The notes beneath the pieces are model-generated. The model was not told the origin of the DNA, searched no databases, and was given only the letters and a program-made list of their open reading frames with translations. Shown one piece after another: positions 9,091-13,125 of a DNA stretch of 22,262 nt. The stretch is from a virus (lineage: Duplodnaviria > Heunggongvirae > Uroviricota > Caudoviricetes). The stretch lies in IMG/VR virus record IMGVR_UViG_2563366960_000006; one strand, given 5' to 3'. Within the stretch, counting starts at the first letter, position 1, and every line of letters begins with the position of its first letter. A program made the translations under genes and the position numbers.

Positions 9091-9807
<717 letters not shown>

Positions 9808-9904: not shown

Positions 9905-10105
9905 ATGGAACAACGCATAACCCTGAAAGATTATGCAATGCGCTTTGGTCAAACCAAGACGGCTAAAGATCTCGGCGTATATCAAAGCGCGATCAACAAG
10001 GCCATTCATGCAGGCCGAAATATTTTTTTAACTATAAACGCTGATGGAAGCGTTTATGCGGAAGAAATAAAGCCCTTCCCAAGCAACAAAAAAACAACTG
10101 CATAA
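9905..10105 (+). CDS. cro: Lambda Cro (66 aa)
   Basis: [66 protein letters not shown] matches lambda Cro apart from about two residues (recall). Confidence 0.95.
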
Positions 10106-10112
10106 GTAACAC

Positions 10113-10157
10113 CGCTCTTTAACAGTCATGGTCCTCATTCCCGCCGAAATGCGGGAA
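10113..10157 (+). promoter_or_regulatory. nutR (boxA + boxB)
   Basis: boxA CGCTCTTTAACA (10113-10124) and boxB hairpin TCCCGC-CGAAAT-GCGGGA (10139-10157), the same boxB as in nutL. Confidence 0.65.
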
Positions 10158-10163
10158 TACAAC

Positions 10164-10200
10164 GCGCATAAGTTGATGCGCATAACTTCTTATTTGTAAG
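10164..10200 (+). terminator. Candidate tR1-position terminator
   Basis: Hairpin GCGCAT-AAGTTG-ATGCGC (10164-10181) followed by a T-rich stretch (ATAACTTCTTATTTG). Weak; lambda tR1 is Rho-dependent. Confidence 0.25.
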
Positions 10201-10213
10201 GAAATACTTACAT

Positions 10214-10507
10214 ATGGTTCGTGCAAACAAACGCAACGAGGCTCTACGAATCGAGAGTGCGTTGCTTAACAAAATCGCAATGCTTGGAACTGAGAAGACT
10301 GCGGAAGCTGTGGGAGTTGATAAGTCGCAGATCAGCAGGTGGAAGAGGGACTGGATTCCAAAGTTCTCAATGCTGCTTGCTGTTCTTGAATGGGGTGTCG
10401 TTGACGACGACATGGCCCGATTGGCACGACAAGTTGCTTCGATTCTCACCAATAAAAAACGCCCGGCGGCAACCGAGCGTTCTGATCAAATACAAATGGA
10501 ATTTTAA
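10214..10507 (+). CDS. cII: Lambda CII transcriptional activator (97 aa)
   Basis: MVRANKRNEALRIESALLNKIAMLGTEKTAEAVGVDKSQISRWKRDWIPKFSMLLAVLEWGVVDDDMARLARQVASILTNKKRPAATERSDQIQMEF matches lambda CII. Confidence 0.93.
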   Translation: MVRANKRNEALRIESALLNKIAMLGTEKTAEAVGVDKSQISRWKRDWIPKFSMLLAVLEWGVVDDDMARLARQVASILTNKKRPAATERSDQIQMEF

Positions 10508-10529
10508 CAACATCCAACGAGGTAATTAT

Positions 10530-10802
10530 ATGCGAAACAAAGGCTTTAATCCACCTGATACACACAAAGAAGCTAAGCGTTTGCGCTTCCTTCGTTCCAT
10601 TGATGAAAGAACTCAAATCTCTTTTGTGAAAGTTGCCAGAACTGAGCTTCTGAAGGCTGAGGCGAGGGCGTTGCTCCCGTCTCTACCAAAAGAGGAGGGA
10701 TATACGTTCATTCCAAACGCATTTCTGGAAAAGCTTCTCAAAGAAGACATATCCGTAAGTCAGTTTAACGATGTTCTTAAGGTCTTTCGTCAAGGCAGGT
10801 AG
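10530..10802 (+). CDS. Hypothetical protein (90 aa) between cII and the replication initiator
   Basis: ATG at 10530 with GAGG SD, in frame with the longer track ORF that overlaps cII. Basic N-terminus; no lambda counterpart at this position that I know of. Confidence 0.45.
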   Translation: MRNKGFNPPDTHKEAKRLRFLRSIDERTQISFVKVARTELLKAEARALLPSLPKEEGYTFIPNAFLEKLLKEDISVSQFNDVLKVFRQGR

Positions 10803-10804
10803 TT

Positions 10805-11752
10805 ATGAGCAATACAGCAAAAATCTACGATTTCAGCGCCGCACACGAGCGCAGGAGCAACAGGATGGAGAACCAGAAAACTGGTTACATTCCGTTGTAC
10901 CGGAGCATTCTGAAACAGTCATGGGCGAAAGATGTTTATCTTCGCACCCTGTGGGAAAACCTTCTCCTGAATGCCGCCAGAAAGCCATACAAAGCGAATT
11001 TCAAAGGTCATGAATGGCATCTGCAACCCGGTCAACTGGTTGTGACAGCAGCTGATTTAGGTCTTCAGTTATGCGACAGACATGGCAAGCCAGCAAGCCG
11101 TGATCAGGTTGAGCGGATGCTTCAGGTTTTTGTGAAAGAGGGGATGATCACCATTGATGGAGAGAAGCAAAAAGGTCGTGTGATTACCATAACAAATTAC
11201 CATGAATATGCTCAAAAAATGGACGACTCACCCGCACATGAAGCCGCACAAACAACCGCACATGATGCCGCACATGATGAAGCAAGTAATGGCGCGGCTT
11301 TCAGCGTACATGCCGCACATGAAAGCGCACATGAAGCCGCACAAACAACCGCACATCATGAACAAGAAGGTATTAACAAGAATATAAATAATACCCCCCT
11401 ACCCCCCAATGGGGGAGGCGATGGGCAGGTTAAACCTGAACGTCGCAAGGCAGAACGAATCGACTACGAATCCTTCCTGAACGCCTACAACACCGAAGTC
11501 GGTGACAGACTTCCACACGCTGTTGCGGTCAACGAGAAACGAAAACGCCGCCTGAAGAAAATCATTCCGCAACTGAAAACGCCAAACGTGGACGGTTTCA
11601 GAGCGTATGTCAGGGCGTTTGTGCATCAGGCCAAGCCGTTTTACTTCGGAGACAACGACACTGGCTGGACGGCAGATTTTGATTACCTGCTGAGGGAAGA
11701 TTCGTTAACGGGAGTACGGGAAGGGAAGTTTGCAGACAGGGGGATTGCATGA
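10805..11752 (+). CDS. O: O-like replication initiator (315 aa) with origin iterons inside the coding sequence
   Basis: Position after cII; N-terminus MSNTAKI... resembles lambda O MTNTAKI...; the central region is encoded by tandem 12-bp repeats followed by an AT-rich tract, the typical lambdoid O/ori arrangement; ATGA overlap with the helicase gene. Confidence 0.8.
11233..11396 (+). repeat. Putative replication origin: eight 12-bp iterons in two blocks, plus AT-rich tract
   Basis: Units CCGCACATGAAG / CCGCACAAACAA / CCGCACATGATG x2 (11233-11280), a 33-bp spacer, then CCGCACATGAAA / GCGCACATGAAG / CCGCACAAACAA / CCGCACATCATG (11314-11361), followed by AT-rich 11362-11396. They encode the [16 protein letters not shown]-type repeat within O. 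Confidence 0.6.
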
Positions 11753-13125
11753 GACAGGATATCGAAGCGAGCGTTATCGGTGGCCTGCTGATTGGTGGAT
11801 TAACGCCAACCGCCAGCGACGTTCTGGCAACGCTTGAGCCGGAAGCGTTTTCAATTCCGCTCTACCGGAAAGCCTTCGAGGTTATCCGTAAGCAGGCGAG
11901 AAACAGAAACCTAATCGACGCGCTGATGGTTGCCGAGGCGTGCGGAGAGGAGCATTTCACGTCAATCCTGATGACCAGCAAAAACTGCCCGAGTGCCGCA
12001 AACCTGAAGGGATATGCCGGAATGGTCGCGGATAACTATCACCGCCGCCTGGTGCTGGAAATCATGGATGAAATGCGTGAACCAATTCAGAACGGAACCA
12101 TCGATACATCGAGTCAGGCGATGGACGAGCTCGTAAAGCGTCTTTCAGCTATCAGAAAACCCCGTGACGAGGTTAAACCTGTACGGTTAGGGGAAATCAT
12201 TACTGACTACACTGACACGCTTGACAGGCGTCTGAGGAACGGAGAAGAGTCAGATACCCTGAAGACCGGAATCGAAGAACTTGATGCTATCACCGGAGGG
12301 ATGAACGCGGAAGACCTGGTGATAATCGCTGCTCGTCCTGGTATGGGGAAAACCGAACTGGCGCTGAAGATTGCCGAAGGTGTGGCAAGCCGCGTTATTC
12401 CTGGTTCTGACGTCCGGCGCGGGGTATTGATTTTCTCAATGGAAATGAGCGCATTGCAGATTGCAGAGCGAAGCATTGCCAACGCCGGGAGGATGTCGGT
12501 TAGCGTACTGCGAAATCCTGCATCGATGGATGACGAAGGCTGGGCGCGTGTTGCTAACGGCATGAGTCAGCTTGCAGATTTGGATGTATGGGTAGTCGAT
12601 GCCTCGCGGTTATCGGTCGAAGAAATACGCTCAATCGCAGAACGGCACAAACAGGAAAATCCAAACCTGTCACTCATCATGGCGGATTATCTTGGCCTGA
12701 TTGAGAAGCCGAAAGCAGACCGCAACGACCTCGCAATTGCTCACATCTCAGGAAGCCTGAAGGCGATGGCGAAAGACCTGAAAACGCCAGTTATCTCCCT
12801 GAGTCAGCTTTCGCGCGATGTTGAGAAGCGACCAAACAAACGCCCGACAAACGCAGATTTGCGTGATTCAGGAAGCATTGAGCAGGACGCAGACTCAATC
12901 ATCATGCTCTATCGGGAAGCGGTATATGACGAGAACAGTAGCGCCGCGCCATTTGCTGAAATCATCGTGACGAAAAACCGTTTTGGCTCGCTTGGTACGG
13001 TTTACCAGCGGTTCTGTAACGGACACTTTGTTGCATGTGACCAGGATGAAGCCAGACAGATTTGCACAGCATCAAATGCACCTGCTGCGCGTGGCAGACG
13101 ATATGCACAAGGGGCTGACGTATGA
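11749..13125 (+). CDS. DnaB-like replicative helicase (458 aa), P22 gene 12-type
   Basis: Walker A motif ARPGMGKT, DnaB-family organisation with a C-terminal RecA-like domain (motifs such as [16 protein letters not shown]). Occupies the position of lambda P. Confidence 0.88.

Follow-up and report, generated by a model that had tools for sequence, protein, structure and literature searches.

The 22,262-nt stretch of DNA analysed here (hereafter the window; IMG/VR record IMGVR_UViG_2563366960_000006, class Caudoviricetes) holds a lambda-type immunity and replication region, as read from Pfam, PHROG and its list of open reading frames (ORFs). Within this region, the gene for an O/gp18-like replication initiator contains an array of eight 12-bp direct repeats that runs directly into an A+T-rich tract. 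From sequence comparison we consider it likely that the array and the tract together form the theta replication origin of this lambda-like prophage, lying inside the gene of its own initiator. The initiator gene and the parts of the element are as follows.

10805-11752, plus strand: O/gp18-like replication initiator gene, 315 aa (ORF list, Pfam, PHROG), holding the whole element
10865-11230, plus strand: N-terminal domain of the initiator, aa 21-142, a predicted winged helix-turn-helix (secondary structure of the AF2 model)
11232-11279, plus strand: block 1, four 12-bp direct units starting at 11232, 11244, 11256 and 11268 (sequence, Tandem Repeats Finder)
11280-11312, plus strand: spacer of 33 bp, the left two thirds of which, AGTAATGGCGCGGCTTT, is conserved at the DNA level
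11313-11360, plus strand: block 2, four 12-bp direct units starting at 11313, 11325, 11337 and 11349 (sequence, Tandem Repeats Finder)
11361-11392, plus strand: A+T-rich, purine-skewed tract of 32 bp with 19% G+C, the proposed DNA-unwinding element
11392-11418, plus strand: G/C-rich element made of two copies of TACCCCCC (Tandem Repeats Finder, 11392-11407) and the short inverted repeat CCCCC-AAT-GGGGG
11420-11749, plus strand: C-terminal domain of the initiator, of the P22 gp18/HK97 gp54 type, helical in the model and presumed to recruit the helicase

Anatomy of the array and its initiator

The repeat array is real and far beyond chance. Block 1 reads CCGCACATGAAG, CCGCACAAACAA, CCGCACATGATG and CCGCACATGATG, and block 2 reads CCGCACATGAAA, GCGCACATGAAG, CCGCACAAACAA and CCGCACATCATG; the hexamer CGCACA is present in 8/8 units, always on the plus strand, and the unit core used in the explanation proposed below is CCGCACAT. 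The two-unit pattern CCGCACAWNNNNSCGCACA occurs six times in the window, each time in the array, and not once in 100 dinucleotide-preserving shuffles, while 8 of the 14 CGCACA hexamers in the 22 kb lie within the 129 bases of the array. A first-pass annotation of this DNA had placed eight in-frame 12-bp units at 11233-11396, in two 48-bp blocks with a 33-bp gap and an AT-rich tract behind them, and had suggested self-alignment as a check. Both the sequence itself and Tandem Repeats Finder, which returns a period of 12 for each block, agree with that description, with coordinates within 1-4 bases. A scan for inverted repeats between 11180 and 11430 detected none, whereas the same scan gave five pairs in P22 and two in ST104.

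The array spans codons 143-185 of the initiator, between the Phage_rep_O domain and the helical C-terminal domain (aa 221-305). Its units are in frame, with the first base of each at codon position 2, and encode (P/A)-A-H-x tetrapeptides, so that the initiator does contain the repeat linker that had been predicted. As for the protein itself, Phage_rep_O (PF04492) matches aa 20-132 with 56.7 bits against a cut-off of 28.7 (E 3.6e-15), passing the gathering threshold, PHROG 345 is annotated 'replication initiation O-like', and the protein is about 98% identical to the O gene product of CUS-3 and of many Stx2a phages. An AF2 model built from 40 homologues had a mean pLDDT of 49 (57-76 in the N-terminal domain) and was used for secondary structure and disorder only. 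It places a helix at 39-56, strands at 62-80, helices at 82-87 and 99-111 and a hairpin at 115-129, the order of a winged helix-turn-helix, with helix 2 starting at A82 (11048-11050) and helix 3 near D100 (11102-11104). Residues 138-218, which include the array-coded residues 143-185, are disordered in the model (pLDDT below 30). Foldseek with this model gave no significant match (best E 0.11), and its weak top matches were winged-helix proteins, TubR among them (E 0.14); a whole-protein sequence search of solved structures gave no match either. Given the mean pLDDT of 49 and the lack of a significant Foldseek match, the assignment of helix 3 as the 'recognition helix' is tentative.

Several minor features accompany the repeats. 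An alternate-frame ORF (11202-11387, plus strand) and a 45-aa antisense ORF (11228-11365, minus strand) cross them and are by-products of the repetition, as are two weak terminator-like hairpins inside the array on the minus strand. The first-pass annotation had explained both the former ORF and an antisense ORF at 11399-11626 (minus strand) as artefacts of the repeats. This is correct for the first of the two, but the second lies wholly downstream of the repeats and is thus not accounted for by them; in P22 it is not preserved at this length. In addition, a lone unit-like copy, GCCGCACACGAG, is present near the 5' end of the initiator gene at 10838-10849 (plus strand), in the same codon register and encoding AAHE. 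It is found in close relatives and is not conserved in diverged ones, and it could be a chance occurrence or an extra initiator site.

The tract that follows the array is very unstable. No 30-mer of the gene is less stable than the one that begins at 11364, whose nearest-neighbour dG is -29.5 against a gene mean of -41.3 (standard deviation 3.1), or 3.8 standard deviations above that mean; in the 22-kb window, only three regions are less stable. On the plus strand the tract has a purine fraction of 0.72, compared with 0.71 in lambda and 0.72 in P22/ST104. The G/C-rich element at its 3' side also follows the AT tract in P22, in ST104 and in the locus L291, and moves with the C-terminal module; lambda-type C-modules have the lambda palindrome TCAGAGAATTCTGGCGAATCCTCTGA in its place.

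DNA-level conservation and pairing with initiator residues

For comparison we used 29 diverged homologous loci with 64-100% identity in the N-terminal domain, taken from phage records and from Enterobacterales contigs sampled at one genome per species. The array lies at the identical place in 29/29 of them, with 6-8 units per locus divided equally between the blocks as 3+3 or 4+4 (29/29, three of which were read from unit spacings). The spacer parses as 33 bp in 26/29 loci, the other three fitting the layout by their unit spacings, and it is likewise 33 bp in relatives of 40-46% identity that have other cores. We also considered iterons of 24 bp, in which pairs of units would make four lambda-like sites. 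These are ruled out by the three units per block of many relatives, which show that there is no obligatory pairing into lambda-like 24-bp sites.

Logo and codon statistics were taken from 176 units of 26 diverged loci and give the unit N[C/G]CG[C/A][A/G]CA[T/A]NNN. Unit position 3, a codon third position, is C in 176/176 units, even though the residue encoded there varies (P/A/T/S/G), and position 4 is G in 176/176. The codons CAT GAA CAA (11358-11366), comprising the last codon of the array and the first two of the tract, are invariant in 26/26 loci, and the codon after them is GAA in 22/26. By comparison, third positions of invariant-residue codons in the N-terminal domain are pairwise identical at a frequency of only 0.55, and 14% of them are invariant. 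Selection thus acts on the DNA, in a pattern that matches protein-binding sites and an unwinding element which happen to be translated.

This bears directly on whether the repeats might matter for the protein only, as an Ala/His-rich linker of low complexity or as a repeat that binds metal, and play no part as DNA. In that case one would expect units that stay in frame and give a regular (P/A)-A-H-x tetrapeptide, in a part of the protein with predicted disorder, and linkers of this kind expand and contract easily. However, a protein-level constraint would not account for a third base that is always C while the residue of unit positions 1-3 changes, nor for the synonymous choice between GCA and GCG, which is near-uniform within a locus and differs between loci. 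G-type loci (see below) moreover often swap Ala for Glu (GAG), a one-base change, and where relatives have other cores, the same layout (12 bp, n+n, 33-bp spacer) specifies very different peptides (SPDE PCDK; GVEG SDEP). We therefore regard a purely protein-level role as hardly probable at all.

The spacer is constrained as well. In its first six codons, identity at third positions is 0.80, compared with the baseline of 0.55. Its conserved core AGYAATGGCGCGGCTTT recurs in the spacers at 1284-1316 of both L291 and L292, and the core AATGGCGCGGCTTT is kept at the DNA level across relatives with different unit cores. It is for this last reason unlikely that the spacer consists of degenerate units, that is, decayed iterons. 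A host factor might bind the spacer core, or the initiator might make a second contact there.

Two forms of the unit core are found, an A type (CGCACA) and a G type (CGCGCA, with CGAGCA variants), and the difference between them is the synonymous third base of an Ala codon (GCA/GCG). Loci are almost wholly of one type, with a single unit of the other type in 2/29. The core type matches two residues of the helix-turn-helix without exception: residue 82 is Ala and residue 100 Asp in the A class, and residue 82 is Ser or Thr and residue 100 His in the G class. The 29 diverged loci divide into 12 of A type and 17 of G type on this basis. A further sample was obtained by scanning 2.9 million viral contigs with DNA patterns alone and then inspecting the protein encoded upstream. 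Among the 77 non-redundant loci retrieved in this way, which have the same layout, A-type arrays went with A82/D100 in 38/38 cases and G-type arrays with S/T82 and H100 in 39/39, so that the co-variation holds in 50/50 A-type and 56/56 G-type loci of both samples combined. The G-type pattern CGCGCATN5CGCGCATN5CGCGCA is itself a good marker of the family, 47 of its 52 matches in those contigs falling in this initiator gene family.

More distant relatives extend the range of cores. Salmonella phage S.Inf 5-2 (44% identity) and Enterobacter phage ENT1 (40%) keep the layout exactly, with 12-bp units arranged 3+3 about a spacer of 33 bp and then an AT tract, and their cores are CAnnCGATrA and G[T/A]CGA[A/G], respectively. 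Residues 99-100 are PQ and AK in these two proteins, versus RD and RH in the A and G classes. At least four core specificities are thus found in the subfamily, as far as sequences can tell.

A recombinant initiator gene from Yersinia vastinensis (L094, 2501-3200) is worth noting here. Its first ~75 residues are near-identical to those of A-type Yersinia phages (L002, L102), while its helix-turn-helix part and its array are both of G type, from which it follows that a crossover took place inside the N-terminal domain and kept the helix-turn-helix and the iterons together.

Tandem 12-bp arrays with the same core also turned up in unrelated viral contigs (L230 6766-6831, L159 from 5075, L127 2136-2201, L141 3489-3518 and L149), for example TCCGCACATAGC in seven copies and CCGCGCATTCGA in eight. 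We considered these as origins of distant relatives and dropped the idea; in the two examined, L230 and L159, the neighbouring ORFs include no related initiator, the L230 array adjoining what looks like a gene for a large terminase and L159 consisting of low-complexity DNA. These arrays are probably unrelated.

Modules, alleles and known origins

The genes around the initiator gene complete the region:

9091-9804, minus strand: cI
9905-10105, plus strand: cro
10214-10507, plus strand: cII
11749-13125, plus strand: gene for a DnaB-like replicative helicase of the P22 gp12 type, overlapping the stop codon of the initiator gene

The helicase gene is supported by Pfam (DnaB_C 8.9e-78, DnaB 4.5e-13) and by PHROG 19. 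The gp18-type C-terminal domain of the initiator is thus followed directly by a DnaB-like helicase gene, without a loader of the P/DnaC type, as in the P22-type initiator-helicase module. A promoter scan of 10000-12000 found none. Three further observations concern this neighbourhood. Between cII and the O-like gene, a 90-aa ORF (10530-10802, plus strand) stops 2 nt short of the O start codon; its likeness to the first part of the Phage_rep_O profile (E 0.048, positions 6-39) is weak and below threshold, and the ORF may be a relic of the 5' end of another O-type gene left after module exchange. A strong terminator-like hairpin (10456-10483, minus strand), with a 12-bp stem and a T run, is located inside the 3' end of cII, at a position matching that of the terminator of the antisense oop RNA in lambda. 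Finally, a 12-bp tandem repeat, TCAGAGCGTATG in 2.1 copies at 11598-11622 (plus strand), encodes RAYVRAFV in the C-terminal domain; it is present in the L291 domain too and is probably a repeat at the protein level.

The initiator gene is a mosaic. BLAST against phage records places the junction between its N-module and its C-module at 11378-11388, inside the AT tract. The downstream half has 94-97% nucleotide identity to ST104, HK544, 2851 and BTP1 and 68% to P22 gene 18, and the genes of these phages have a different, lambda-like N-half with four dyad-symmetric iterons of ~18-20 bp. Klebsiella and Yersinia phages match the upstream half together with the array at 75-79% identity; in them, a C-half with 51% identity to the P-binding half of lambda O is followed by the gene for lambda P (PF06992). 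The combination of this N-terminal domain and array with a P22-type C-terminal domain and helicase is found in the window and in L093. That one C-domain type also pairs with P22- or HK97-type N-domains, each having its own four dyad iterons, indicates that the N-domain and the repeats move as one, and that the C-domain and the palindrome move with the partner protein. Such modularity of N-domain with repeats and of C-domain with partner has been established for lambda O (PMC2629481, PMC7466680, PMC8022706).

Given the mosaic junction, one might suppose that units and tract serve mainly as a recombination linker for swaps of N- and C-modules, with the units bound by something other than the N-terminal domain. 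An AT tract common to otherwise unrelated N- and C-modules fits this idea, but is equally expected of a shared unwinding element, and the idea explains the tract and not the units, which differ by type of N-module and co-vary with helix-turn-helix residues. We consider it very improbable.

The 4+33+4 arrangement is kept exactly in 58 of 80 near-identical IMG/VR loci, and most of the remainder show point changes within a single core. Protein databases contain near-identical alleles from E. coli and Salmonella (P0052, P0001, P0004, P0014) whose block number is one, two, three or four; they differ by steps of 31 aa (93 bp), which fits an exact 32-bp repeat at offset 93 in the window. The linker must therefore tolerate large changes in length, and the variation in block number apparently comes from unequal recombination between blocks. 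In single-block alleles, either two blocks are dispensable or the prophages that carry them are replication-defective; in lambda, two iterons and the AT tract suffice in vitro (PMC7466680).

This variability of block number among near-identical alleles would also be compatible with a true initiator-binding site that acts in control, by autoregulation, as a transcription roadblock or through titration/handcuffing control of copy number, with replication starting elsewhere. Plasmid and lambda iterons do act in negative control as well (PMC3349717; PMC6118388 for IncX1), and the lone copy at 10838-10849 near the 5' end of the gene could be taken in the same sense. However, that copy is not conserved in diverged relatives, the array is always followed directly by a strongly conserved and very unstable AT tract, as in proven lambdoid origins, and the replication region showed no second cluster of repeats joined to an AT tract. 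A role in control with the start site elsewhere is in our judgement improbable.

Is the element then a lambdoid origin? Like ori-lambda, it is found midway along its initiator gene, which belongs to the pR operon and comes after cro and cII, and it consists of repeated, presumed initiator sites followed by an AT-rich purine-skewed tract and a short palindrome. Its position in an O-like ORF, its at least four repeats, its AT tract and its co-inheritance with the N-half are all those of lambdoid origins; the 18-19-bp iterons with internal dyad symmetry are not found. As for the protein, lambda O shares the Phage_rep_O match, and likewise its N-domain sets origin specificity and its C-domain sets the partner (PMC7466680), although the partner is a P-type loader in lambda and the helicase itself here. 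When the full-length proteins are compared by BLASTP, only the first ~65 residues of the N-domain align with lambda O (32% identity, E 0.004). The geometry of the sites is where the two part. Lambda has four, and P27 and 933W (Stx phages) have six, dyad iterons of 18-19 bp, each bound by an O dimer and spaced 20-24 bp, whereas the window has eight 12-bp head-to-tail units without inverted repeat, in two equal blocks with a fixed 33-bp spacer. The contrast with the four 19-bp iterons of lambda, which had been drawn in the first-pass annotation, is thus confirmed and can be sharpened, the units being direct repeats without dyad symmetry.

The same holds for the closest C-domain relatives. P22 (gene 18/gene 12) and HK97 gp54/ST104 gp18 share with the window the C-domain, the AT tract with the G/C element and the DnaB-like helicase gene, but have lambda-like N-domains unlike that of the window initiator. 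Their iterons, TTTACCGAATCGGTAAA in P22 and ATTAGCCAAGTCGGCTAAT in ST104, are four dyad sites spaced 20, 24 and 23 bp (PMC8022706). In position, modular logic and AT tract, the element matches the known lambdoid origin in the O gene, and in lacking dyad iterons it is a distinct architectural variant of it. Its new aspects are that the sites are direct repeats, that the blocks are equal, that the spacer is conserved and that D/H pairs with A/G.

The closest cases of short direct repeats in such genes are those of phage L and phiAT3. Phage L gene 18 has six imprecise 11-bp repeats, TGTCCAACGGA (PMC8022706). Lactobacillus phage phiAT3 ORF30 (L293) has five tandem 11-bp direct repeats, (A/T)GTCAATCAA, at 1237-1291; its initiator is 32% identical and DnaD/O-like, and the next gene is DnaC-like. 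As in the window, the repeats are short, of about a helical turn, and lie just after the N-domain of an O/DnaD-like initiator gene. In contrast to the window, the period is 11 bp, the cores are unrelated and the repeats of each phage make up one block, with no sign of two blocks around a conserved spacer; phage L gp18 is a different, distant protein. Short direct-repeat origins in such genes may be widespread beyond enterobacteria.

The segment itself is common. Of 5,426 complete E. coli genomes, 277 carry it at a coverage of at least 80%, and the records listed for them annotate 'replication protein' only; it is also found in CUS-3, Kapi1, HF4s, JEP4, Gally, TL-2011a and about 50 Stx2a phage records. 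The CUS-3 record, the one record checked for features, has no origin feature. Our literature search on the motif and on the origins of CUS-3, Kapi1, HK620 and Sf6, the coverage of which leaves out older lambdoid-origin papers behind subscription, found no description; PMC6118388, which came up as a match, concerns IncX1 plasmid iterons instead.

Proposed mechanism and its significance

That the origin lies inside the initiator gene, with its specificity linked to the N-domain, is a textbook principle, and lambdoid origins are the classic model of how an initiator opens DNA, a model that rests on dyad iterons bound by O dimers. The first-pass annotation had proposed an iteron origin in the O-like gene of the window, and this proposal is supported by the constraint on synonymous sites, the co-variation with initiator residues, the joint inheritance of N-domain and array, and the lambdoid position with its AT tract. 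We suggest that the eight 12-bp units would be binding sites of the winged-helix N-terminal domain, in an array that would double as the code for the disordered Ala/His-rich linker between the two domains of the initiator. Since the sites are arranged head to tail, 12 bp apart and without dyad symmetry, the N-domains would most likely load side by side, one per unit, as a short nucleoprotein filament on each block, as opposed to the dimer on a palindromic iteron of lambda and P22. Assembly of the filament would stress and open the adjacent A+T-rich purine-skewed tract, after which the C-terminal domain would recruit the phage's own DnaB-like helicase, the product of the adjoining gene. Given that 12 bp exceeds a helical turn, a straight filament might untwist the DNA by ~0.14 turn per unit, which, as a conjecture, could help to open the tract.

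There is a possible precedent for such an arrangement in the centromere complex of the type III partition system of plasmid pBtoxis, where the winged helix-turn-helix protein TubR coats two sets of 12-bp direct repeats on tubC (bioRxiv 10.1101/2022.04.29.490116; PMC9178275). Both the 12-bp direct repeats and their two sets have counterparts in the window. However, TubR serves partition and not replication, and has neither a sequence relationship nor a significant structural match to the initiator, so that the likeness is a mechanistic analogy and not homology. Plasmid iteron origins (RepA/pi/TrfA) are a poorer parallel: their iterons are 17-22 bp and are bound by monomers with two winged-helix domains, versus 12-bp units and a single winged-helix-like domain in the model here, and Rep_3 or related Pfam families gave no match in the Pfam search.

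Several points weigh against the reading of the element as a filament-bound origin. The co-variation of core and residues is confounded by ancestry and linkage, since the helix-turn-helix is encoded just 100-180 bp upstream of the array, and linkage and shared ancestry alone could yield much of the association, which may reflect few independent events. The joint retention of helix-turn-helix and array in L094 is also what linkage predicts. Single-block alleles with three units are fairly common in genomes. The structure model is of low confidence (mean pLDDT 49), with no significant structural match, and the stoichiometry of one monomer per unit and the filament are conjecture. Last, binding, filament geometry, melting, helicase recruitment and origin activity are inferred from sequence.

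A broader version of the proposal would treat this O-like subfamily, widespread in Enterobacterales prophages, as one in which a TubR-like winged-helix filament melts the origin by untwisting, one or two residues where the recognition helix begins (D100 for CGCACA, H100 for CGCGCA, others for other cores) form a simple natural recognition code, origin-initiator pairs are mutually orthogonal and AATGGCGCGGCTTT is a site for a host factor. Taken as a whole, this is a tentative picture that we would sooner doubt than assert.

Nothing established is overturned by these findings, and another origin specificity would not surprise a specialist. In practical terms, they would allow origins to be annotated in such prophages and suggest which replication modules may be compatible or orthogonal. 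If the proposal is true, residue 100 (D/H) and the core base (A/G) would make a natural specificity pair of a single residue with a single base, and the same protein family would have arrived at a second, geometrically different solution for an origin.

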